37,596 bases of DNA from a virus (Duplodnaviria > Heunggongvirae > Uroviricota > Caudoviricetes): IMG/VR virus record IMGVR_UViG_2558860170_000006; one strand, given 5' to 3'. Made by a program: the position numbers and the translations under genes. This document shows positions 1-24,335 of this stretch, piece after piece. The notes beneath the pieces were generated by a model. That model worked only from the letters and a program-made list of their open reading frames with translations. It was not told where the DNA came from and ran no database searches. Position 1 is the first letter of the stretch. Each line of letters starts with the position of its first letter.

Positions 1-378
1 ATGGACGAACAGTGGGGCTATGTCGGGGCTAAATCGCGCCAGCGCTGGCTGTTTTACGCGTATGACAGTCTCCGGAAGACGGTTGTTGCGCACGTATTCG
101 GTGAACGCACTATGGCGACGCTGGGGCGTCTTATGAGCCTGCTGTCACCCTTTGACGTGGTGATATGGATGACGGATGGCTGGCCGCTGTATGAATCCCG
201 CCTGAAGGGAAAGCTGCACGTAATCAGCAAGCGATATACGCAGCGAATTGAGCGGCATAACCTGAATCTGAGGCAGCACCTGGCACGGCTGGGACGGAAG
301 TCGCTGTCGTTCTCAAAATCGGTGGAGCTGCATGACAAAGTCATCGGGCATTATCTGAACATAAAACACTATCAATAA
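1..378 (+). CDS. insB: IS1 transposase InsB, C-terminal part (partial at window edge)
   Basis: 125-aa ORF identical to the C-terminus of the InsB ORFs in the other two IS1 copies (…[42 protein letters not shown]…). Confidence 0.85.
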
Positions 379-393
379 GTTGGAGTCATTACC
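1..393 (+). mobile_element. IS1, 3' 393 bp (window starts inside the element)
   Basis: Ends with the IS1 terminal repeat ...CAATAAGTTGGAGTCATTACC at 372-393; sequence matches the two full 768-bp copies at 1929-2696 and 36041-36808. Confidence 0.9.
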
Positions 394-697
394 CGATATC
401 CTGCTGAGAACATAAACACCCACGGATCGAGGCGTACGCTATCATGTTGCTGTGCACCGCCCAGTTTATAATTGGCGATGGTATCGATATCCATGTACCA
501 CACTGACATGTTTTAAAAAATGCAATAAGACATTGTATCTGAAAGAAAAAACAGGATTTTGAGGCGCTTTTTTATACCGTTTTTCCGTGTTTTTAACTGC
601 CTGATTTTATTGAAATCTTTTTTAGTTTTGCAGAAAGGATTTTTTGCTCGATCGCTTTAATTTTATACATTCCTGATAACGGAAATTTTTTTGCCCG

Positions 698-727
698 TTG
701 ACAGTTTTTGTTCTCCGGGGCTATATT
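698..727 (+). promoter_or_regulatory. candidate sigma70 promoter (TTGACA, ~18-bp spacer, TATATT)
   Basis: TTGACA at 698-703 and TATATT at 722-727 within an AT-rich intergenic region upstream of the rha-like gene. Confidence 0.3.
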
Positions 728-735
728 CCTCACAC

Positions 736-809
736 AACCGCAAAATCGGTTGTCGGGATTGGCGTCTCGGATAACATCACAACGCATAGCCGCGTTTGCG
801 GTTTTTTTT
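736..809 (+). ncRNA. candidate structured leader or small RNA with terminator-like 3' end
   Basis: 9-bp closing stem AACCGCAAA (736-744) / TTTGCGGTT (795-803) enclosing ~50 nt, followed by a T8 run (802-809); begins a few nt downstream of the candidate promoter. Confidence 0.3.
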
Positions 810-969
810 GCGTTAAGCATTGCCACATTCGCATTATGGTGGGGCGTGCAGGGGCGGAGAAATCCGCGCCGGGTTTTGTGATGACCGGTTACGCCAACCC
901 TGTACGTCTCACCACCTCCCTGATTGGCGTCAGAGGTGGTGATCATCCAATTAATTGGAGTCATCACAT

Positions 970-1527
970 ATGAATACAGCTATAACTTTTTCTAACGAGT
1001 CACCAAAAGTCTTTTTCAAAGATGGTCGCCTGGTTACCACCTCTCAAGCTGTTGCCGACTACTTCGATAAACAACATAAACACGTTTTAGCTAAGATTGA
1101 CACACTCGACTGCTCTCCCGAATTTACATCAGCCAACTTTTCGGCCGATGTTCAGACTGTCGAAATTGGCAACGGCGCAGAACGTGAATCACGATGCTAC
1201 CTGATCACAAAAGACGGCTTCATGTTCCTCGTAATGGGATTTACTGGCAAAAAAGCAGCCAGACTAAAAGAAGCTTACATTGAAAAATTTAACGCAATGG
1301 AAGAAGAACTCCACAAACGTCCTCCTGCAGCACAAAACTCCCCCGCCCCAAATAATGGATGCGCATTACTGATCCACTTCGATAAACACGGTCAGGTCGA
1401 GTTCACAGAAAAAGTCCCCGCCGATGCGATGGTATGCACTCTGGAACGGTTTAAATTTTATCTGGAGCAACATGGGTGGATCGTTGCCCGTAAAGAACAA
1501 TTGGTGGAAAGGTTGATGCGGTTTTAA
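970..1527 (+). CDS. Rha-family phage regulatory protein (antirepressor-like)
   Basis: N-terminus MNTAITFSNESPKVFFKDGRLVTTSQAVADYFDKQHKHVLAKID resembles the Rha domain; GGAG SD 9 nt upstream of ATG at 970 (the track ORF starts at an upstream TTG, 955). Confidence 0.55.
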   Translation: MNTAITFSNESPKVFFKDGRLVTTSQAVADYFDKQHKHVLAKIDTLDCSPEFTSANFSADVQTVEIGNGAERESRCYLITKDGFMFLVMGFTGKKAARLKEAYIEKFNAMEEELHKRPPAAQNSPAPNNGCALLIHFDKHGQVEFTEKVPADAMVCTLERFKFYLEQHGWIVARKEQLVERLMRF

Positions 1528-1653
1528 TGAATGCAAAACCCCGGATGATCACCGAGGTTAATTTTATCGAGCGTGATTGCCGCTAATCGCCATCGCTCTG
1601 ATTGAGCGTAAATCATTCAGGTTATTCAGTTCTTCCTTCTGCTCTCGCTGACG

Positions 1654-1899
1654 TCAATAAATCCCATCATTGCGATCAACCTCATCCTTAACCATTGATG
1701 CGAGCAGTTCTTCCAGTTTCTGCGCTGACAGCTTTACCTGGTGATCTTCAGCATCTTCCCGGGCTATTGTGGTTCGCGCAGTGGCTGATTTTGCTGACAT
1801 CACCACAGGGGGCAGACGGACCATTGAACCATGGCCTCCGGAACAAATAAGGGCAAAAATAACAACCACTATCGAAAGCTCACAAACTAACCGCAGCAC
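1654..1899 (-). CDS. hypothetical small protein (start uncertain)
   Basis: 81-aa ORF convergent with rha; no recognisable motif; the N-terminal part overlaps the repeat-A hairpin, so the true start may be internal. Confidence 0.2.
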   Translation of the reverse strand: MLRLVCELSIVVVIFALICSGGHGSMVRLPPVVMSAKSATARTTIAREDAEDHQVKLSAQKLEELLASMVKDEVDRNDGIY

Positions 1900-1943
1900 G
1901 TTCCTGCATACGACGTGTCTGCGGCATAGGTAATGACTCCAAC

Positions 1944-2447
1944 TTATTGATAGTGTTTTATGTTCAGATAATGCCCGATGACTTTGTCATGCAGCTCCAC
2001 CGATTTTGAGAACGACAGCGACTTCCGTCCCAGCCGTGCCAGGTGCTGCCTCAGATTCAGGTTATGCCGCTCAATTCGCTGCGTATATCGCTTGCTGATT
2101 ACGTGCAGCTTTCCCTTCAGGCGGGATTCATACAGCGGCCAGCCATCCGTCATCCATATCACCACGTCAAAGGGTGACAGCAGGCTCATAAGACGCCCCA
2201 GCGTCGCCATAGTGCGTTCACCGAATACGTGCGCAACAACCGTCTTCCGGAGACTGTCATACGCGTAAAACAGCCAGCGCTGGCGCGATTTAGCCCCGAC
2301 ATAGCCCCACTGTTCGTCCATTTCCGCGCAGACGATGACGTCACTGCCCGGCTGTATGCGCGAGGTTACCGACTGCGGCCTGAGTTTTTTAAGTGACGTA
2401 AAATCGTGTTGAGGCCAACGCCCATAATGCGTGCAGTTGCCCGGCAT
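1944..2447 (-). CDS. insB: IS1 transposase InsB (made as InsAB' fusion by -1 frameshift)
   Basis: 167-aa ORF; canonical IS1 InsB sequence. Confidence 0.9.
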
Positions 2448-2641
2448 CCAACGCCATTCATGGCCATATCAATGATTTTCTGGTGCGTACCGGGTTGAGA
2501 AGCGGTGTAAGTGAACTGCAGTTGCCATGTTTTACGGCAGTGAGAGCAGAGATAGCGCTGATGTCCGGCAGTGCTTTTGCCGTTACGCACCACCCCGTCA
2601 GTAGCTGAACAGGAGGGACAGCTGATAGAAACAGAAGCCAC
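2366..2641 (-). CDS. insA: IS1 InsA
   Basis: 91-aa [46 protein letters not shown]…; zinc-finger InsA. Confidence 0.9.
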
Positions 2642-3007
2642 TGGAGCACCTCAAAAACACCATCATACACTAAATCAGTAAGTTGGCAGCATCACCTGCG
2701 GCATAATCCCAATGATTACTCCCTGACAGGATTTGCAGGCCACTCAATATCAGGTGCAGTTGATGTATCAACACGATTCAACAATACCCGATATTTATTC
2801 CATGCCTCCAGCAACGATCTTTCTTCCTCCGTTGCGATTTCCAGATCTACAGCATCCTGCAGTGGCGCAATATACTCACTAAATTCCTGGATGTAGAACT
2901 GTGTGGTGACGGTCTTCCAGCCATTCGGCTCCTGCTGTATCGAAGCATACTAGGCTATTTCAATATCGCTATGCTGCGGCAGCATTTAACCCCTTGTAAT
3001 TCATCGC

Positions 3008-3036
3008 CATAATTGATTTAATTCACAAATAAAACT
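3008..3036 (+). promoter_or_regulatory. candidate promoter for the methyltransferase gene (TTGATT, 17 bp, TATAAC)
   Basis: TTGATTTAATTCACAAATAAAACTATAAC immediately upstream of the ORF start. Confidence 0.25.
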
Positions 3037-3041
3037 ATAAC

Positions 3042-3710
3042 ATGGTGAAATCAATGAAAACAAACACAGATGATGGGGCTAAAATTTACACACCACTTAC
3101 CCTAAAGCTTTATGACTGGTGGGTTTTGGGAGTATCAAATCGGCTTGCATGGGGATGTCCTACAAAGGAACACCTTCTTCCACACTTTCTGGAACATTTA
3201 GGTAACAACCATCTGGATATTGGTGTTGGAACTGGGTTTTACCTTACTCACGTACCTGAGAGTAGTCTGATATCTTTAATGGATTTGAACGAAGCTAGCC
3301 TGAACGCGGCATCTACAAGGGCTGGGGAATCAAAAATTAAACATAAAATTAGCCATGATGTTTTTGAACCTTATCCCGCGGCGTTACATGGTCAATTTGA
3401 TTCCATTTCCATGTTTTACCTTCTTCACTGCCTGCCTGGAAATATATCTACAAAAAGCTGTGTAATACGCAATGCGGCGCAGGCCTTAACTGACGATGGA
3501 ACTCTATACGGAGCCACAATTCTTGGCGATGGAGTTGTGCACAATAGCTTCGGTCAAAAACTGATGCGCATTTACAATCAGAAAGGCATCTTTTCAAACA
3601 CAAAAGATTCCGAAGAAGGCTTAACACATATACTCTCAGAGCATTTCGAGAATGTTAAAACCAGGGTTCAAGGTACTGTAGTAATGTTTTCCGCTTCAGG
3701 GAAAAAATAG
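3042..3710 (+). CDS. class I SAM-dependent methyltransferase, substrate unknown
   Basis: 222-aa ORF with glycine-rich SAM-binding motif I (LDIGVGTGFY); AT-rich codon usage relative to the flanking phage genes; followed by a long hairpin 3718-3750. Confidence 0.6.
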   Translation: MVKSMKTNTDDGAKIYTPLTLKLYDWWVLGVSNRLAWGCPTKEHLLPHFLEHLGNNHLDIGVGTGFYLTHVPESSLISLMDLNEASLNAASTRAGESKIKHKISHDVFEPYPAALHGQFDSISMFYLLHCLPGNISTKSCVIRNAAQALTDDGTLYGATILGDGVVHNSFGQKLMRIYNQKGIFSNTKDSEEGLTHILSEHFENVKTRVQGTVVMFSASGKK

Positions 3711-3715
3711 CATCC

Positions 3716-3860
3716 AACCGCAGCACGTTCTTGCTTAAGACGTGCTGCGGCATAATCCCAATGATTACTCCCTGACAGGGTTCGTAGGCCACTCAATATC
3801 AGGTGCAGTTGATGTATCAACACGGTTCAGCAACACCCGATACTTTTTCTAGGCTTCCAC
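3716..3860 (+). repeat. direct repeat copy B (~140 bp), begins with a near-perfect long hairpin
   Basis: CCGCAGCACGTTCTTGCTTAAGACGTGCTGCGG hairpin (3718-3750) then CATAATCCCAATGATTACTCCCTGACAGG…; matches copy A; its distal part overlaps the decayed pin reading frame. Confidence 0.6.
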
Positions 3861-4115
3861 CACCAGCACGACAAGATGCCGCATACAGTGACCCAGTCAG
3901 TCCAGTTTTCAGACAACCAGTGCGTCACCTTTTTGAAGGCGCTTTAAAGCACGTTTTAATCCAGGTCGGCCTGTCCTTGTTCCGCTTAATTTATCTTCAA
4001 ATATTTGTTCATATCCTGCACAAACAAGAGCGTTTCGTTGCAGGTCTGTATTCTGGTCATTTGTTGATACCCTTACATAGCCAATCAGCACGCTGAATCT
4101 CCCGTCCAAAAGCAC
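3780..4115 (-). pseudogene. pin: Pin/Gin/Hin-family serine DNA invertase, decayed
   Basis: N-terminal 68 codons intact (…LIGYVRVSTNDQNTDLQRNALVCAGYEQIFEDKLSGTRTGRPGLKRALKRLQKGDALVV) then TGA; the same frame continues with recognisable invertase residues (KLD*LG…) and further stops; no intact catalytic or HTH C-terminus. A GTG at 4091 aligns with the usual MLIGYVRV start. Confidence 0.7.
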
Positions 4116-4145
4116 AAATCATGCCATGCAGGCCAGAAACCGCCA

Positions 4146-4171
4146 TTATCTAAAACCTCGGTTTACGAGAA
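4146..4171 (+). other. invertase recombination site (gix/pix-like), proximal
   Basis: TTATCTAAAACC-TC-GGTTTACGAGAA, 26 bp with a central TC dinucleotide, as I recall the gix consensus; lies between pin and the alternative fibre segment. Confidence 0.7.
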
Positions 4172-5080
4172 CTCGGCACAAGCGGGGAGAAAATACCGTT
4201 ACTCAGTACAGCGAATACCTGGACTAATCGACAAACATTCAGCGGTGGCCTTTCTGGTGAACTATCCGGCAATGCTTCTACAGCTGCAAAATTAAAAACT
4301 GCCAGGAAAATAAGCAATGTGGCTTTTGATGGTTCCTCCGATATCACATTAAAAGCAAGTCATGTTGGTGCGTTTGCCTTAGGGAAAACAGGAAGCACCG
4401 TTGCGAATGATAAAGCAGTTGGATGGAACTGGAGTAGCGGAGCCTATAACGCAACTATTAGTGGTGCATCAACGTTAATTATTCATTTTTATATGGGAGA
4501 AGGAAGTTGTCCTGCAGCTCAGTTTCGGATTAATTATAAAAATGGCGGTATTTTTTATCGTTCAGCCCGTGATGGTTATGGTTTTGAAGCCGACTGGTCC
4601 GAATTTTACACCACCAGAAAACCTTCAGCAGGAGATGTTGGTGCACTGCCGTTATCTGGTGGTCAACTGAATGGTGCACTGGGTATCGGAACATCCAGTG
4701 CTCTTGGCGGTAATTCGATTGTATTGGGTGATAATGACACGGGCTTTAAACAAAAAGGCGATGGTAATCTGGATGTTTATGCTAATAACGTCCATGTTAT
4801 GCGCTTTGTCTCCGGAAGCATTCAAAGTAATAAAACCATAAATATTACGGGACGTGTTAATCCCTCGGATTACGGTAACTTTGATTCCCGCTATGTGAGA
4901 GATGTCAGACTTGGCACACGAGTTGTTTAGACCATGAAGAAAGGCGTGATGTATGAAAAATCAGGCCATGTAATCACGGGGCTTGGTATTATCGGTGAAG
5001 TCGATGGTGATGATCCGGCAGTATTCAGACCAATACAAAAGTTAATTAACGGAACATGGTATAACGTATCGCAGGTATAA
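4160..5080 (+). pseudogene. alternative tail-fibre C-terminal segment (Sv') with in-frame amber codon
   Basis: Frame is open from the recombination-site centre; shares [12 protein letters not shown](K/R)Q.GDG and the C-terminal [12 protein letters not shown] with the stf C-terminus; in-frame TAG at 4928-4930 splits it into 4319-4930 and a 48-codon tail. Confidence 0.6.
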
Positions 5081-5082
5081 TC

Positions 5083-5616
5083 ATGCAGCATTTAAAAAAC
5101 ATTGTCGCAGGTAATCCAAAAACCGTTGAACAATACCAGCTAACAAAGAATTTTGATGTTATCTGGTTATGGTCCGAAGATGGAAAAAATTGGCATGAGG
5201 AATTAAAAAACTTTCAGGAGGATACAATAAAACTGGCTTACACAGTTGAGGGAATAATTATTGCTATAGACAAGGATGTATCAGCAATTAATCCAGAAGG
5301 TTTAAGTGTCGTTGAGTTGCCTGATATTACAGCAAATCGCCGGGCTGATATTTCGGGCAACTGGATGTTCAAAGATGGTGCGGTGATAAAGCGAACTTAT
5401 ACCGAGGAAGAGCAAAGGCAACAAGCGGAAAATGAAAAGCAGAGCCTGCTGCAGCTCGTCAGGGATAAAACCCAGCTGTGGGACTCTCAGCTACAGCTGG
5501 GCATCATTTCCGATGAGAATAAACAAAAATTAACCGAGTGGATGCTCTATGCGCAGAAGGTTGAATCCACAGACACCTCCAGCCTGCCAGTAACGTTTCC
5601 CGAACAACCAGAATGA
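5083..5616 (+). CDS. tfa: tail fibre assembly protein (alternative-orientation copy, Tfa')
   Basis: 177-aa [17 protein letters not shown]…, paralogous to the minus-strand Tfa ([14 protein letters not shown]…). Confidence 0.8.
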
Positions 5617-5619
5617 GAG

Positions 5620-5648
5620 AAGGCCCGCTATCGGGCCTTAATTTTTAT
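5620..5648. terminator. bidirectional hairpin terminator between the convergent tfa genes
   Basis: AAGGCCCGCTATCGGGCCTT followed by ATTTTTATT; A/T-rich on both sides. Confidence 0.5.
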
Positions 5649-6172
5649 TCAGGCTTTTGTGGCCATTCAGGATTTGCCGTATCCACACGGCTGACCAGAA
5701 CACTGTAGCGTTCCCATGCTTCCAGTCGTGTGCGTTCCTCGTCTGTTGCCATATTCAGCCTGACAGCGCGTTCCAGCGGCTGGATGACTGATTCAGCTTC
5801 GGAAAGCAATGCGGCCTTTTGTGATTCGGCCTGTTGTTGCAGTTCCTGTTCTGTATATTCCCTCTTTACTACTTTACCATCCAGAAACATCCATTTTCCG
5901 TTATTGTCTGCGTGACGATTTGCCGTAATATCAGGAACTTCAACTATGCTTAGCCCTTCAGGATTAATAGTTGAAACGTCTTTACTGACAGCAACGATGA
6001 TGTTGTTCTCATCGTAAGCAATTTTTATGGTGTCTGGCTGAAAATTCTTTTGTTCCTCATACCAGTTTTTGCCATCTTCGCAAAAGAGCCATACCACGCC
6101 CGCTTTTTTAGTTAGCTGGTATTGTTCCGGTGTTTTCGGATTCCCGGCCTTAATATTTTTCAGGTGCATCAT
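5645..6172 (-). CDS. tfa: tail fibre assembly protein Tfa (expressed orientation)
   Basis: Start ATG at 6170-6172, 1 nt after the stf stop; TfaE/Tfa-family sequence. Confidence 0.8.
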
Positions 6173-6173
6173 C

Positions 6174-8930
6174 TTAAACACTCCCCACGTTGTACCATAT
6201 TCCCCCAATCAATTTCTGAATTGGCCTTCTGGCAACAGTGTCGACAATATCATCCGCATTGCTGTTAATTGCGGCTGTTAAAACATAACCTGACGCATCG
6301 CCAAAGCCGTAGTCGCGCCATACGTTTTTATATTCAATGCTGCCAAGACGAATATCCCGAACGACATGATTATGCAGCCATGTGCTTAACCAGTTGTTTT
6401 CCCACACTGAACCATAAATATCGCCACTAGACGCAACTTGCGCACCACTTCCCAGCGCAAATCCCCCATCTGTTTTAAAAATGAAATCACCACCACCATC
6501 TGAACCGTTATTAATATGAACACCATCACCACCGTTATCTTTCCACAAAAACATACGAATTCTTCCGTCTTCGTTGGCGAATGTAATGTGGTGGCGGTAA
6601 TTACTTTTTAATCTAAAATTGCTGCCATTAGATTCAATATCTTTATAAAGATGTAATCCTAACTCATCAATATGTCCGATGCGCGAACCATTTGAATAGA
6701 AGCTAATAATACCATCTCCATCTTGCCTAAATCCGGTGTCGTTATCTCCCAGAACAATGGAGTTTTCACCCAGTGCGTTATCAGTAGCTCCAATAGCTAG
6801 ACCTCCTTTAATTTTGGCCCCGTGGCTGACAGATATAGCACCTGTTCTCAGATTTATAGCGAATGGCCTTAATGGGCCGATATTACCGTTTTCGCCTTGT
6901 CCTTCAGCCGTCGGAATGAAATGAAGAAAATCTTCTGAACGACGGAAAATTAGACCGAAGGTATCATTGAAAATTCGCAGCGCATTCACCGTGCCAATTT
7001 TCAGTTCTCCGGTCATTTTATCGCCGGAACGCTGAACGGCGTTACCAGCCTTGTTTACCGTTTCCTGTAAACCGAGGTATTCGATAACGGCAGCAACGGT
7101 CGATTTCGCAAGAATATCCCGCCCGACTTTTGTCAGGGTTGCCAGGCTGGCGACATCATTCCCCGTAAAATACGGAAACTTGCCTGCCGCAGTAGTAAGT
7201 CCGGCCAGCGCCGTCAGGGTGGCATCTTTCGGTTGCTTACCCGCAAGCGCGTTAGTCATGGTGGTCGCAAAATTCGGGTCGTTGCCCAGCGCCGCAGCCA
7301 GCTCGTTCAGCGTGTTCAGTGCATCAGGTGACGAATCTACAAGGGCGGCAATCGCAGCCATAACGAAAGCCGTGCTTGCGATTTGGGTATTATTCGTTCC
7401 CTGTCGCGCAGTTGGTGTTGTTGGCGTTCCGGTCAGTGCAGGACTATTTAAGGGCGCTTTCTTGTTCGTTTCACCCATTACCGCCTTAACCGCTTTTGGC
7501 GTTGCCGCCAGTGACTCGGAAGTGCTGTTGGTCGCACTGCTGAGCTGTACTATCCCCTTTTTCGTCGTGCTCGCATCCTCCAGCGCCACGGCGGATGCAA
7601 TATCCTCTGCCCGTTTTGCTGCTGTCTCGGCGCGCGTTGCCGCGGATTCAGCAGCAACTTTGCTCTGAGATGCAGCCGTCGCACTGCCTGCCGCCTCTGA
7701 TGCTTTCGTTGTTGCTGTCGTGGCACTACCTTTCGCTGCTGACGCTTGTCTGGTCGCCTCATCTTTTGAAGCAGACGCAGATGATGCCGATGACGCCGCT
7801 GAACTGGCTGACGATGCGGCTGCTGCCTTAGAGGAAGCAGCATTGTCTGCTGAAGTCTTTGCATTTGTTTCAGAGGTTTTTGCTGCAGAAGCAGACCTCG
7901 CTGCTGCAGTGGCTTGCTCAGTGGCTTTGCCAGCCTTCGTTGTGGCTGTTGAAGCGGATGATGCGGCGCTTTCTGCCGATTTTCCGGCGGCGGTGGCACT
8001 GGCTGAGGCCTGCCCGGCACTTGTTGACGCGGCACTGGCAGATAATGCAGCCGCTGTTTTTGAACCTGCCGCAGCTGAGGCGCTCTGTCCCGCTGCTGTT
8101 TCAGAAGACTTAGCGTTCGTCTCGGACGTTTTTGCCGCCTTCGCGGAATTTCCTGCCGCCGTTGCCGAGGAAGCTGCACTACTGGCACTTGATGATGCAT
8201 TCGTTTCTGAAGATTTCGCTGCCTCTTTTGAGGCCGCCGCACCCCGTGCCGAGGTGGCAGCTTCTGACGCCTTCGTGGTCGCTGTGGATGCAGAAGTGGC
8301 TGCCGATTTTTGTGATGCTGCGGCATTCGTTTCTGACGTTTTCGCGGCACTGGCGCTGGTAGCTGCCGCGCTTTTTGATGACTCTGCAGCAGCACTTTTT
8401 GCTGCTTCACGGGCCTTTGTCGATGCCGTTCCTGCGCTGGAAGACGCTGACTGAGCCGACGACGCGGCCTGTCCGGCTGACGTGCTGGCGGCACGTGCTG
8501 AGGCTGCAGCATCGGTTGCATGAGTTGCCGCCTCGCTGGCTGATTTTTTCGCGGCTGCCGTATTCTGTGCAACCGCGGAGGCGTTACGTGACACCTCTTC
8601 CACCATCTGCTCAAAGCGGCGCAGTGCCTCCGGTCGGACATCATCCTCCGTCATGGCACCGAGAAAATCATTCAGCGTACCTGGTCTGGAACCTTCATAG
8701 ACGGTAATGGTCCCGGCATGTGAAGGCGGAAAACCTTCAACCAGCAGGGTGACGCTGTACTGACCATGCTCAACATCCATGCTGTAACGTCCGGCTTCAT
8801 CCGGATTTTCAGAGGCCACCGTGTTCACCACCATCGTGCTGCTGGTTCGTCTGGCCTTCAGCACAATGGTGCAGTTCTGTACTGGTTTTCCTGTGCCATC
8901 TTTAAGCACGCCAGAAATTTTTACTGTCAT
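6174..8930 (-). CDS. stf: side tail fibre protein Stf
   Basis: 918-aa ORF; N-terminus [30 protein letters not shown]… Stf-like; long Ala/Ser/Thr-rich repeat region; C-terminal variable part lies inside the invertible segment. Confidence 0.85.
7062..7087 (-). other. invertase recombination site (gix/pix-like), distal, inside stf
   Basis: Minus strand reads TTATCGAATACC-TC-GGTTTACAGGAA, inverted relative to 4146-4171; encodes EYLGLQE in the stf frame, in the same phase as the proximal site. Confidence 0.7.
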
Positions 8931-9748: not shown

Positions 9749-12700
9749 TCAGCTGATACTGATGCCTGCGGTGGCTTTCTTCATCACCACAACCAGCAAA
9801 TCGCTGATACTTGCTGTGGGATACCAGTTATTCACCAGCCATGCTGACACCGAAAACTCCAGCGTCATGTGGCCGCGACCAGCTGGCATATCAATAACAC
9901 CACTGTAAATCAGCGTATTATCCAGCGCGGTACGGTTATAAATTTCAGCACCGTTTTTCCGTACTATCAGGCGGCATGACGAATAAATATCGTTATTCTC
10001 CCGCTCATGTTTAGCGCCGCTGAATGCCACCGCCGGAATAACAATTTGCCTGTCAAAAGGCTGATCGTCATAAATCCTGACGGTAATGGTCCCTGATGGC
10101 CACCGCTCCGGTGCCCGGGAGTCCCGCGGAAAAGCCTTACCCACTGTTTTGACTATATCGCCTTCAATCTGGTTGGCTGACAGTTTCCCCTTAATCTGAC
10201 AGTTCTCATTAATTGTGACATTGTTGAGCGTCCCGGCGTTCGCATTCACACTGCCACTGATATCTGCATTTTTAGCGGTCAGTTTTCCGTCCGGTGTCAG
10301 GGAAAATGCCGGAGGATTACCGCCGCTGGTAATGGTGGGAGCCGTCAGGCGTTTCAGGAACACGTCGTTCATGAATATCTGATCGCCCTGACCAACAAAC
10401 ATCGGCTTTGTGTTGCCATTCGCAGGATTAATCATCGCAATCCTGTCTGCCGCCAGCAGCACCTGACTCTGCATTCCTGCTGGCGTATTCTCAATACCGG
10501 CACCGATACCCGCAATATAAAGGCGTCCGTCCTTCATCTGTTGCAGCTTCACAGCCCACATGCTGTTCAGATTATTATTTGTATCAACCTGAACCTTCTG
10601 TATCTGCTGGATTGCCGCACTCTGGTCTTTCAGTTTCTTATTGACAGTCTGCGTGATTTCATTGCTGACATCCGTAATGGACGTCCTGATTTCAGCCAGG
10701 TCAGGCGCAAGCTGACCGTTATCAATCTGCGTCCACAGCTCCTGAGCCAGATGTGTTTTCCCTATCTCTCCTTTGAAAAAATCCAAGTAACCTTCCGCAT
10801 CATCGCTCGCCCGACCGACAGCCTCCACGAATGCCGATTTGCCAACGGTGTTCACACTGCGAACGTAAAAATAATAATCATGGCCCGGTTTGATATTGAT
10901 ACTGGCGGCTATCCAGTACAGCGCCGTGCCAAGATAGCGGGCGCTGGTTTCAACCTGCCTGATATCCGCAATCCGCTTTTCCGAGAACCAGAACTCAAAC
11001 TGTACCGTCGGGTCATAAACGGCAAGATGCGGCGTTGCGGTTATCTGAAAATAGCCCGGCGTCAGCTCAATCCGCGACGGTGCTGCCGGTGCGGCAATCC
11101 GGAAGGTGGTGGTGGCAGGTTCACCCTGCTGGCCATAGCTGTTTATCGCCCGCACCGTCAGGGTGTATTCCCCGAGCGGCAGGCCGCTGAAACGGTGCTC
11201 CGTGTCTGCGGTGATGGCGGTGGTCACCAGTCTGGCATCCGTTCCCTTACCACTGGTCAGGCGCAGACTGAAGCGCACACCCTTCACCACCCGCGGCGTG
11301 TCCCATTTCGCCTGCGCCAGATACTGGCCGTCAGGTGCTGCACTGCCGGTGGGATGACGCTGTTCAGGGAACCTGACTGCGGCTCAAAGCGGGCACCGTT
11401 ATCCACGATGGCTTCTTTTTCCAGTACGTGCTGCACCGCCGTGATGGCAAAGGTGCCGTCCGTGTTTTCCCGGACGGAGACACAGCGGAACAGGAGACGG
11501 CGCAGTGACGGCAGGGAGAGTCCCCACACCCCGTATGTCTCCACACCATCAGGCAGGGTACTGACCTGTATCCGGTCCGGCGCGGGGTGTTCGGTGATGT
11601 CCACACTCACCGGCTTACCGCTGCCGTTAATCAGGTTCACCGTGGCGGCACCGGTCTCCGGAAGTGTCACTTCACGGTCCAGCGTCAGAGTGCGGGTGGC
11701 AGCATCAATGGACAGGACACGTCCGCCGGTCAGGGTCCCGGCATAGTCGTTATCACAGATTTCAATGATGTCACCGGGTGTGTGCCGCAGCCCCTGAGAC
11801 CCGAGCGTGAAATCCACCGTCTGCGTTTCCAGCAGTTCGGTCTTTATCACCCACAGTCCGGCACGGTGGGCCTGACCGCGGCTGGTACAGCCGAACGCGT
11901 CCATCTTCAGCAGGTTGCGTCCGTAGCGCAGTATGGCTTCCGGGTCTTCCACCAGTTCCGTGGAGGTCTGCCAGCCGTTCTGCGGGTCGGTATAATTCAC
12001 CTCCACCGCCGTGTGCCGGTCCTTCAGGGCACTGAAGCTGTAGCGGAAACCCACGCCGTTATCATCCACCACCACATCGCTGTTGGTGTACGGCCACACC
12101 ACATCCGACGGGCGGTCCTGAACAAACGTCAGCGTCTGGCCGTTCCATACCGGCATACAGCGCATCGCCGAGCAGAAATCACTGAGCACGTCCCATGCCT
12201 TACGCTGTTGTGCCAGGTACGCATTGAAGGTCATCCGCGGCTCGGTCTCCCCGAAACTATCCGGGACCGTCTGGTCGCAGTACTGCCCGATGGCATACAG
12301 CGCCCACTTGTCCACATCCGCCGCCCCCAGACGTTTTCCCATGCCGTAGCGCGGGTGAGTCAGCATGTCCCACAGACACCAGGCCGGATTGTTGCTGTAT
12401 GCCGGTTTCAGGCTACCGTCCCAGATACCACTGTACGTGCGTTTTTCCGGGTCATAGTTTGACGGCACCTGGATGATGCGACCGCGGATATGGTAGTTCA
12501 CCGTCATCTGCTGGCCGCCGAACTGCTCCGCATCCACCTGCAGCCCCACAATGGCCGTGTTCGGGTAGCACTGTTTCACATCGATGATTTCGGTGTATGA
12601 CGACCACAGCGTCTTATTCTGCAGCTGGTCCGTGGTGCTGTCCGCTGTCTCCCGGACCATCCGGATGTTAAAAGGACGGGGAGGCAGATTATCCAGAATC

Positions 12701-13200
12701 ACCGACGCCAGAAACTGCGAGGTGGTCTTGCCGTTAATGGTGACATCCTTTTCTGTCACCCAGTTACCGTTACGCTGTAACTGAATCAGCAGGCGGACGG
12801 ATGTCGGGTTTCGGTCACCCTTTGACGTGGTCTGCACCAGTGACTGCACCCCGAAGGTAACCCGCAGGCGGTCAATGTTCGCGGACGTAATGGTGCGCGT
12901 CACCGGTTTTGCCTTCGTCACTTCCACGCCCAGTCCGGTTTCAGCACCGGAGGACTCAAAGCCTTCCGGTGGTGTCTGCTCCTGCTCCCCGGCGCGTCAG
13001 ACCGCCGTCACACCGTGTATCACGGGATTACCGTCCGTGTCCGTCAGCGGGGTTTTGTTCACCAGGATACTCTGCAGTCCCTTCACCGGACCTTCTATCA
13101 GTCCCTCACCAATCGCATCAATCACGCTCATCATCTGCGTGGATTTGAGATTATCCTTCGCCTCACGAGGCGTGTGTGCCTTACCGCCACCTTTTCCCAT
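9749..13200 (-). pseudogene. J: tail tip host-specificity protein J, disrupted
   Basis: Collinear with lambda J across three track ORFs; in-frame TGA at 12997-12999 (…GVTAV*RAGEQEQTPPEGFE…) and a frameshift near 11290-11330 (…PPAVQHLTA / [13 protein letters not shown]…). Confidence 0.85.
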
Positions 13201-22429: not shown

Positions 22430-22975
22430 TGCATGAACTGGAAGTCCTGCTGAGTCGCCTGAAAATGGAGCATCTGAGTTATCACGTTGAAAGCCTGCTG
22501 GAACAGGCAGCTAAAAAAGAGCTGAACTACCGGGAGTTCCTGTGCATGGCGCTACAGCAGGAATGGAACGGCAGGCATCAGCGCGGTATGGAGTCCAGGC
22601 TGAAGCAGGCTCGTCTGCCGTGGGTCAAAACGCTGGAGCAGTTCGACTTTACCTTCCAGCCGGGCATCGACCGTAAGGTTGTCCGGGAACTGGCTGGTCT
22701 GGCGTTCGTGGAGCGCAGCGAAAACGTGATCCTGCTGGGCCCTCCTGGTGTCGGAAAAACTCATCTGGCCATAGCTCTTGGCGTGAAAGCGGTGGATGCG
22801 GGACATCGGGTACTGTTTATGCCACTGGACAGACTGATCGCGACACTGATGAAAGCGAAACAGGAAAACCGGCTGGAGCGTCAGCTACAGCAACTGAGTT
22901 ATGCCCGGGTGTTGATCCTGGATGAAATAGGCTATCTGCCGATGAACAGAGAGGAAGCCAGTCTGTTCTTCCGGC
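22426..22975 (+). pseudogene. istB: IS21-family helper ATPase IstB, truncated by IS600
   Basis: Walker A GPPGVGKTH and Walker B LILDEIGY present; the frame ends at the IS600 boundary after …EEASLFFR; the expected ~80 C-terminal codons are not found downstream of IS600. Confidence 0.85.
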
Positions 22976-23039
22976 TGAGGTAGCCTGAGTTTAACGGACA
23001 CTCCTTCCTGAAATAGAATGGCATCAGAAGGAGCTAATA

Positions 23040-23342
23040 ATGAGCAGAAAAACCCAACGTTACTCTAAAGAGTTCAAAGCCGAAGCTGTCAGAACGGTTC
23101 TTGAAAATCAACTTTCGATCAGTGAAGGCGCTTCCCGATTATCTCTTCCTGAAGGCACTTTAGGACAATGGGTTACCGCCGCCAGAAAAGGGCTCGGTAC
23201 TCCTGGTTCCCGCACGGTGGCTGAACTGGAATCTGAAATTCTGCAACTGCGTAAGGCGTTAAATGAAGCTCGCCTTGAGCGAGATATATTAAAAAAAGCA
23301 ACAGCGTATTTTGCACAGGAGTCGCTGAAAAATACGCGTTAA
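23040..23342 (+). CDS. IS600 OrfA
   Basis: 100-aa ORF MSRKTQRYSKEFKAEAVRTVLENQLSISEGASRLSLPEGTLGQWV…; A-run (AAAAAAAG) near its 3' end fits an IS3-type -1 frameshift into orfB. Confidence 0.9.
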   Translation: MSRKTQRYSKEFKAEAVRTVLENQLSISEGASRLSLPEGTLGQWVTAARKGLGTPGSRTVAELESEILQLRKALNEARLERDILKKATAYFAQESLKNTR

Positions 23343-23377
23343 TCGAACAATGGCGACAACAATTTCCCATTGAAGCG

Positions 23378-24196
23378 ATGTGTCAGGTATTTGGTGTATC
23401 CAGGAGCGGTTATTACAACTGGGTACAGCATGAACCCTCAGACAGAAAACAAAGTGATGAGCGGCTAAAACTGGAGATTAAGGTGGCACATATCCGCACT
23501 CGCGAAACATATGGAACCCGGCGGCTCCAGACGGAGCTGGCAGAGAATGGCATCATCGTTGGTCGTGACCGACTGGCACGTCTTCGTAAGGAGCTAAGGC
23601 TACGCTGTAAGCAGAAACGCAAGTTCAGAGCGACTACGAACTCGAACCACAATCTGCCAGTTGCGCCAAATCTGCTGAACCAGACGTTCGCTCCTACAGC
23701 ACCAAATCAGGTCTGGGTGGCGGACCTGACGTATGTTGCCACACAGGAGGGATGGTTGTACCTCGCTGGCATCAAAGATGTTTATACGTGCGAAATTGTC
23801 GGCTACGCCATGGGAGAGCGCATGACAAAAGAGCTGACAGGTAAAGCCCTGTTTATGGCGCTCAGGAGCCAGCGCCCACCTGCCGGGCTAATCCACCACT
23901 CTGATCGAGGTTCACAGTACTGCGCATACGATTACCGGGTCATACAGGAGCAGTCTGGTCTGAAAACATCAATGTCGCGTAAAGGTAACTGTTACGACAA
24001 CGCTCCGATGGAAAGCTTCTGGGGAACGCTGAAAAATGAGAGCCTGAGCCACTATCGTTTTAATAACCGGGATGAAGCCATCTCAGTAATACGGGAATAC
24101 ATTGAGATTTTCTACAATCGTCAGCGTCGTCACTCTCGTCTGGGGAATATCTCCCCGGCAGCCTTCAGGGAAAAATATCATCAGATGGCTGCTTAA
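23378..24196 (+). CDS. IS600 OrfB (DDE transposase catalytic part)
   Basis: 272-aa ORF with IS3-family DDE integrase-like sequence (…VWVADLTYV…HHSDRGSQY…YDNAPMESFWGTLK…). Confidence 0.9.
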   Translation: MCQVFGVSRSGYYNWVQHEPSDRKQSDERLKLEIKVAHIRTRETYGTRRLQTELAENGIIVGRDRLARLRKELRLRCKQKRKFRATTNSNHNLPVAPNLLNQTFAPTAPNQVWVADLTYVATQEGWLYLAGIKDVYTCEIVGYAMGERMTKELTGKALFMALRSQRPPAGLIHHSDRGSQYCAYDYRVIQEQSGLKTSMSRKGNCYDNAPMESFWGTLKNESLSHYRFNNRDEAISVIREYIEIFYNRQRRHSRLGNISPAAFREKYHQMAA

Positions 24197-24335
24197 AAAA
24201 AGAACAAATGGTAGTGTCCGCTATTGCCAGTACACCTCAGTTAGTCAGCTTCTTATCGAACTTGAGCTGAAGGATCTTAAAACAAGTTTCCATAGTGCTC
24301 CTGGATTTTCTCTTTTTGGACATTGACGTCTCCAC

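Follow-up and report, generated by a model that had tools for sequence, protein, structure and literature searches.

The closest described relatives of the tail fibre switch analyzed here are the G segment of phage Mu, with its invertase Gin, and prophage Phi4 of Escherichia coli EC958, a strain of sequence type 131 (ST131). In Mu, a constant fibre part is followed by a gix site, the variable genes Sv-U, their mirrored alternatives U'-S'v, a second gix site and the invertase gene. In Phi4, two 26-bp sites surround a 3106-bp segment (Forde et al. 2014, Table 3), the invertase EC958_1582 is truncated and lacks the helix-turn-helix (HTH) domain, and PacBio contigs of both orientations were obtained from one culture; it was proposed that the invertase of a P2-like prophage, Phi1, acts in trans, the sites of Phi1 and Phi4 being nearly identical (PMC4134206). 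Here, we have examined a stretch of 37,596 nucleotides (nt) from a virus of the Caudoviricetes (IMG/VR record IMGVR_UViG_2558860170_000006; the whole stretch is called the window below), which carries the same two sites in the stf tail fibre locus of a Shigella sonnei prophage. On the basis of the observed sites, reading frame and dead invertase, and of the inverted state and an intact invertase observed in sister genomes, we interpret this locus, with a probability of about 0.85, as a stf inversion switch of the Gin/Pin/Cin type (Din family) whose resident invertase is dead and which is flipped in trans by a compatible invertase. Such an arrangement is already known: it was reported for this prophage as found in E. 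coli ST131 (EC958 Phi4, PMC4134206). What is specific to S. sonnei is incremental, namely a nonsense codon in the silent fibre tip, different alleles of the tips and of their tfa partners, and an IS600 element that locks the switch of the prophage that could donate the enzyme.

In the mechanism described for the Din family, invertase dimers sit on the sites, an enhancer bound by Fis takes part in the synapse, the 2-bp core is cut and the subunits rotate before religation (PMC3798978). The enhancers of Gin and Hin are located within the gene of the invertase itself, some 100 bp away from the proximal site (PMC3798978; the title of Kahmann 1985, cited in that paper, also refers to enhancer location). 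Action in trans is documented as well: PinQ, PinR and PinE all invert the P segment of e14, and the Hin segment is a substrate of Fin (PMC12529663), with further documentation of trans action among Din invertases in PMC4272514.

Crossover sites and alternative fibre tips

The elements of the switch are listed below, with positions in the window and lengths in amino acids (aa) where an open reading frame (ORF) is intact.

4146-4171, plus strand: invertase-proximal crossover site, gixR-like, TTATCTAAAACC-TC-GGTTTACGAGAA; consensus match, 23/26 to gix, identical to EC958 Phi4_3prime
7062-7087, minus strand: crossover site inside stf, gixL-like, TTATCGAATACC-TC-GGTTTACAGGAA; 24/26 to gix, identical to EC958 Phi4_5prime
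4158-7075, no strand: invertible segment of 2918 bp, core dinucleotide to core dinucleotide; found inverted in CP179990.1, CP026802.1, CP041511.1 and at one end of UGZB01000001.1
7076-8930, minus strand: constant N-terminal part of stf (ORF; Pfam phage_tail_N on the identical protein of strain 53G)
6174-7061, minus strand: tipB, variable fibre C-terminus now fused to stf (ORF; inversion in silico)
5645-6172, minus strand: tfaB, tail fibre assembly chaperone cognate to tipB, 175 aa, intact (ORF; Pfam Caudo_TAP on the identical protein)
5083-5616, plus strand: tfaA, tail fibre assembly chaperone cognate to tipA, 177 aa, intact (ORF; Pfam Caudo_TAP)
4172-5080, plus strand: tipA, silent alternative fibre C-terminus, in frame with the site and carrying a nonsense codon (Pfam gp37_C)

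A search of the window with TTATCNAAAACCTCGGTTTACNNGAA, allowing at most three mismatches, gave two matches, which were the two 26-bp sites, and no match could be found in 100 shuffles of the window (none expected by chance). Each site consists of 12-bp imperfectly palindromic half-sites around a shared 2-bp core, and the two lie in inverted orientation as a 30-nt inverted repeat (83% complementary, arms 2890 nt apart), the longest exact stretch common to both site regions being 12 nt. Both boundaries of the Mu G segment read TTATCCAAAACCTCGGTTTACAGGAA, with which the window sites share the TC core and agree at 23 and 24 of 26 positions, respectively. In the frame of stf, the site at 7062-7087 is read as V-I-E-Y-L-G-L-Q-E, and in the present orientation the whole gene (6174-8930, minus strand) is an intact ORF of 918 aa. 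When 4158-7075 was inverted in silico, the frame of stf ran uninterrupted across the new junction, and a fusion of 875 aa is indeed called in relatives that carry the segment inverted. Thus, the site lies inside the fibre gene and permits an in-frame exchange of its C-terminus.

The segment itself is made of two mirror-image cassettes, tipA-tfaA on the plus strand and tfaB-tipB on the minus strand, and the first 159 nt of tfaA form an inverted repeat with the 5' end of tfaB (71% identity). An in-frame TAG at 4928-4930 cuts the last 48 codons off tipA; the orthologue in E. coli NCTC86 has CAG at the matching codon. The silent tip is therefore a pseudogene. A reading of this DNA made from the letters alone (the sequence-only reading) had described two inverted 26-bp sites with a central TC around a 2.9-kb segment, with two fibre C-termini and their cognate tfa genes in opposite orientations and both sites in the same codon phase. 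Its coordinates and site sequences proved correct, the ORFs and Pfam domains agree with the cassette structure, and the in-frame fusion in silico agrees with the codon phase. It had staked its case on resemblance to gix, pix or hix sites, and the resemblance is close to Mu gix (23/26 and 24/26) and letter for letter to the sites of EC958 Phi4. The nonsense codon in tipA, on the other hand, had been missed.

A separate observation concerns E. coli NCTC86 (L003 3037-5965). Its two alternative tips have the same N-terminal module, of the tipA type, at 94% and 99% identity to window 4142-4914; they are distinguished solely by the C-terminal ends and the tfa genes that go with them. Tip domains have thus been shuffled as modules inside the switch.

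Decay of the resident invertase

Next to the proximal site lie the following remnants.

3886-4091, minus strand: remnant of a gin/pin serine invertase; 60 good codons (4091-3912), then TGA at 3909-3911 and at 3897-3899, with pin-like sequence gone by about 3886
3765-3885, minus strand: tfa 3'-end fragment fused to the invertase stump; 3745-3862 is a 90% direct repeat of 2696-2813

The remnant matched Mu Gin (PDB 4m6f) with E=3e-40 in its N-terminal part only, and its first 183 nt are nearly those of Mu gin (177/183 identical, 96.7%). The alignment to Gin (193 aa) reaches residues 1-98 only and is tfa-derived after about residue 75; at the DNA level, the resemblance to intact invertase genes is lost near 3901. 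The two TGA codons fall at Gin W61 and R65. Intact relatives of the invertase have 195-199 aa and contain both PF00239 and PF02796, whereas here a deletion has removed about 110 codons of the C-terminal part, helix E and the HTH domain among them, and the 3' end of a tfa gene stands in their place. This tfa fragment (3765-3885) corresponds to the last ∼30 codons, with a TAG of its own at 3849-3851 and the stop codon TAA at 3765-3767, and it marks the deletion that took the C-terminal half of the invertase. The remnant thus has no complete catalytic domain with oligomerisation helix E and no C-terminal HTH, no intact serine invertase (Resolvase catalytic domain plus HTH_7) adjoins the segment, and a tblastn search of the window with an intact invertase found no other invertase-like sequence.

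The same lesion is widespread. In E. coli orthologues, the remnant is annotated as an incomplete recombinase pseudogene and the tfa piece as a tail fiber assembly protein fragment; an identical pin-tfa junction was present in 533 complete E. coli genomes, and the invertase was truncated in every relative examined. The sequence-only reading had held that pin keeps 68 good codons and then accumulates stop codons, so that the switch could not flip without an invertase supplied in trans. The decay stands. The 68-codon ORF opens at an upstream GTG (4115), however, and since the start homologous to that of Gin is the GTG at 4091, only 60 codons are genuine; nor are the stop codons the main lesion, which is the deletion with its tfa fusion. 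An intact invertase ORF, named there as a result that would speak against decay, was seen at this locus in none of the relatives examined, and dependence on trans action is supported by the inverted state of sister genomes (below), which occurs though the invertase in cis is dead.

The stump may nevertheless have a role. By the location of the Gin and Hin enhancers, a further element can be proposed.

3950-4091, no strand: putative Fis-dependent recombinational enhancer (sis)

It is plausible, by analogy with these enhancers, that the element, which would lie in the stretch 96.7% identical to Mu gin, has been retained in the 5' stump of the invertase gene and could still work. Inversion would then proceed as follows: serine invertase dimers would bind both 26-bp sites and synapse with the Fis-bound enhancer, which is probably still present in the surviving stump; both sites would be cut at the central TC, and the strands rotated and religated, so that 4158-7075 is turned round. 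In the present orientation, stf would be read into tipB (918 aa) and then tfaB; in the other orientation, it would be read into tipA and then tfaA, the nonsense codon shortening the product to 875 aa. Because the resident invertase is dead, inversion would depend on a compatible invertase encoded elsewhere in the genome.

Both orientations of the segment in sister genomes

In three complete chromosomes (CP179990.1, CP026802.1 and CP041511.1), exactly 4158-7075 was inverted. Window 1-4166 matched all three at 100%, including both copies of insertion sequence (IS) IS1, and window 4142-7091 was reversed there. The sites in these chromosomes read TTATCTAAAACCTCGGTTTACAGGAA and TTATCGAATACCTCGGTTTACGAGAA, which shows a reciprocal exchange of half-sites at the central TC. 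These three chromosomes had been found by looking up an ORF of 280 aa (window 6174-7016, minus strand) that is expected as a separate gene only when tipB adjoins the dead invertase. In inverted relatives, tipB was called as this promoterless ORF beside the dead invertase, and stf::tipA was called as 875 aa plus a leftover ORF of 48 aa; the nonsense codon of tipA is therefore shared by the inverted chromosomes. Both states were common: the index contained the 918-aa form of stf in 272 blocks and the promoterless 280-aa form of tipB in 349 blocks, and among complete E. coli genomes the broken pin adjoined tipA in 374 and tipB in 150.

Two states could also be found within single assemblies or closely related isolates. 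In UGZB01000001.1 (4.96 Mb), two copies of the locus are present, one at a distance of ∼27 kb from either end: the copy near the start (L008, ∼6-29 kb) has the orientation of the window, and the copy near the end (L026, ∼4.939-4.957 Mb) is inverted. Their coordinates are consistent with an untrimmed circular overlap of ∼27 kb. Recombinant junctions were also present in several draft assemblies of the lineage. Only junctions in N-free contigs were counted; for these an assembler artefact can be excluded, because the site regions share only 12 exact nt. Two draft scaffolds joining the locus to a P2-like prophage (L007 and L009) were rejected as artefacts, the joins being single-N scaffold gaps at window 3495. 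Finally, two apparently serial ST131 isolates from Sweden, 4/0 and 4/1-1, differed only by the inversion, with half-sites swapped between flanks of 6407 and 3270 bp at 100% identity. Thus, both orientations, with exchange at the core dinucleotide, occur in chromosomes of the S. sonnei lineage as well as in these ST131 isolates.

Candidate sources of the invertase

S. sonnei-type assemblies contain, in a P2-like prophage, an intact Gin-like invertase of 195 aa (P0121; Resolvase plus HTH_7), the contigs listed for it being 10 of 28. Its exact sequence is present at 4,413,089-4,429,676 of UGZB01000001.1, the assembly that also shows both orientations of the locus, one copy (L008) being identical to that of the window. 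P2-like prophages that have P0121 use the sites TTATCGAATACCTCGGTTTACAGGAA and TTATCTAAAACCTCGGTTTACAGGAA, whose left half-sites are the same as those of the window and whose right half-sites differ by at most two bases. In the P2-like prophage of UGZB01000001.1 (L021 7860-8010; also L018), a copy of IS600 splits the invertase-proximal site (...CTACCTCA|GTTTTAGATAA); it lies 65 bp upstream of the invertase start, and the invertase ORF is intact. With its proximal site split and one intact site left, the switch of this prophage is locked. Judging by these sequences, the 195-aa invertase of the P2-like prophage appears to be the best candidate for the enzyme acting in trans, and next comes P0094, the Gin of a Mu-like prophage. 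Although P0094 had been named as an S. sonnei protein, it was rejected as evidence on 53G itself, since the Mu-like prophage that encodes it lies in other assemblies.

Weighing of alternative explanations

Several observations weigh against a switch still flipped in trans. Complete assemblies each show one consensus orientation, and for UGZB01000001.1 the untrimmed overlap is deduced from coordinates. IS600 may have removed the promoter of the P2-like invertase. Flipping in 53G itself would have to be inferred, as the intact invertase is known from a sister assembly. In addition, a scan for Fis motifs in the remnant, in Mu gin and in an intact P2-like gene gave several shared AT-rich G-N13-C matches and no decisive pair, and thus did not discriminate among them. 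It might be supposed, then, that the switch in 53G no longer flips, no compatible invertase being expressed, and that relatives differ by rare past events. A dead resident invertase, one tip reduced to a pseudogene and a prophage full of IS elements with a split J gene would all fit such a fossil, as would the IS600 copy just upstream of the P2-like invertase of the sister genome, which may silence that gene. We consider this quite unlikely, however, given the recombinant junctions in several drafts of the lineage, the high frequency of both states, the PacBio contigs of both Phi4 orientations from a single EC958 culture (PMC4134206), and the opposite orientations at the two ends of UGZB01000001.1, which imply a mixed culture.

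The remaining explanations concern how the two orientations arose. RecA-dependent homologous recombination between inverted repeats could produce them with no serine invertase, and repeats are available, both the 30-nt repeat that contains the sites and the 159-nt repeat of tfaA and tfaB. The exact stretch of 12 nt shared by the site regions, however, is well below the length that RecA-dependent recombination is generally held to need; in all inverted relatives the exchange maps to the central TC, the half-sites being cleanly swapped, and no inversion endpoint was seen in the tfa repeats, which makes this origin very improbable. Another conceivable origin is that both orientations were already fixed as an ancestral polymorphism when the invertase decayed, and that horizontal exchange of the prophage later spread them. 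The pin-tfa deletion junction, found as it is in 533 E. coli genomes of many lineages, does indicate that the lesion is old and the prophage widespread. Yet the two states have the same broken invertase and flanks that are 100% identical, lineage-specific IS1 insertions of S. sonnei included, while the inversion is the sole difference between the two ST131 isolates, which seem to be serial, and single cultures are mixed (UGZB01000001.1; EC958, PMC4134206). An ancestral origin is thus scarcely credible, and inversion in trans by a compatible serine invertase remains our preferred interpretation.

Comparison with related systems

The locus is orthologous to that of EC958 Phi4 at trp/ompW: window 2696-4914 is 99.1% identical, and the sites and the truncated invertase are the same. 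It differs from Phi4 in its S. sonnei host, in the C-terminal module of tipA, both tfa genes and part of tipB, which are other alleles (74% identity or no match), in the nonsense codon of the silent tip and in the IS1 copies on its flanks. Moreover, unlike in EC958, the P2-like prophage of the S. sonnei sister genome has its proximal site split by IS600. The gene order follows that of the Mu G segment and Gin described above; in Mu, however, gin is intact and the two sites are identical, whereas the window has a lambdoid stf fibre, a 60-codon invertase stump and one tip that is a pseudogene.

As with the e14 P segment, also inverted by PinQ and PinR of other cryptic prophages (PMC12529663), and with Salmonella Hin/Fin, the invertase of one prophage would act on a segment (fibre or flagellin) at another place in the chromosome. 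The sites of e14 (PMC12529663) differ in sequence from those of the window. The elements in question are, as in e14, defective prophages retained by the host. In K-12 e14, PinE in cis is intact and trans action is redundant, whereas in the window trans action would be obligatory. Tominaga and co-workers reportedly described in 1991 the pinB/B segment and other pin genes of Shigella, Din-family systems in prophage remnants that are said to be defined by active invertases. A S. boydii system is also listed in a consensus footnote of the EC958 study (PMC4134206).

The host prophage

The chromosome of S. sonnei 53G (HE616528.1; PMC5447701) matched the window at 100% identity across 18,930 bp. This region forms the right-hand end of a lambdoid prophage inserted at trp/ompW, and in E. 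coli EC958 and NCTC86 the same prophage adjoins an OmpW gene fragment, beside trpA. The prophage that hosts the switch is a defective lambdoid prophage of S. sonnei. It contains three copies of IS1 (1-393, 1929-2696 and 36041-36808) and two of IS600 (22975-24239 and 34315-35578), and many copies of both across a prophage are the typical pattern of S. sonnei. One of the IS1 copies, that at 1929-2696, directly adjoins the outer tfa fragment; a related contig (L033, JAACXM010000015.1) lacks this copy. The gene of the lambda J-like tail tip (9749-12927, minus strand) is broken up into two ORFs (547 and 513 aa) that overlap, its N-terminal part being missing or fragmented in the window, whereas J of E. 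coli NCTC86 is one ORF of about 1157 aa. The prophage is probably no longer capable of producing infectious particles.

A gene for a class I S-adenosylmethionine (SAM)-dependent methyltransferase of 222 aa (3042-3710, plus strand) lies between the direct repeats 2696-2813 and 3745-3862, which are tfa 3'-end fragments with 90% identity. This cassette occupies the place of the missing 3' half of the invertase gene, and hundreds of E. coli genomes have conserved it.

Implications

Both the principle and, as EC958 Phi4, the locus itself have been published, and the S. sonnei copy adds detail to them and no new concept. A more far-reaching interpretation, which we regard as rather doubtful, is that complementary decay has created an obligate partnership between prophages in S. 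sonnei, that the host has co-opted fibre switching and that the same invertases drive chromosome rearrangements. The P2-like prophage would contribute the invertase, its own switch being locked by IS600, and the lambdoid prophage, having no invertase, would contribute the sites, the enhancer-bearing stump, the 918-aa stf and both tfa genes. If this were true, the survival of the switch in a prophage riddled with IS elements could mean that it has a role for the host, for example an anti-phage one by masking of receptors, like StfE2 of e14, and invertases may also recombine the sites of different prophages, as suggested by a Mu-like Sc fused to tipB (L033).

The contig concerned, JAACXM010000015.1 (L033 8413-9000; window 7087 downwards), is N-free and carries this Mu-like Sc in frame with tipB of the window. 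Its junction is a hybrid site, TTATCGATAACG-TC-GGTTTACAGGAA, with 9 exact nt shared by the parental sites, and the other side of the segment adjoins the broken pin and the methyltransferase gene. From its sequence, the junction looks like a real invertase-mediated recombination between the sites of two prophages; if real, it would entail a large chromosomal rearrangement.

Switches of this kind also have a practical effect on assembly and annotation, in the form of spurious contigs, duplicated ends and mis-called fibre fragments. The locus is relevant to the question of how defective prophages remain dynamic: it would represent an orphan recombination substrate that is kept active by compatible invertases shared among the prophages of one genome.

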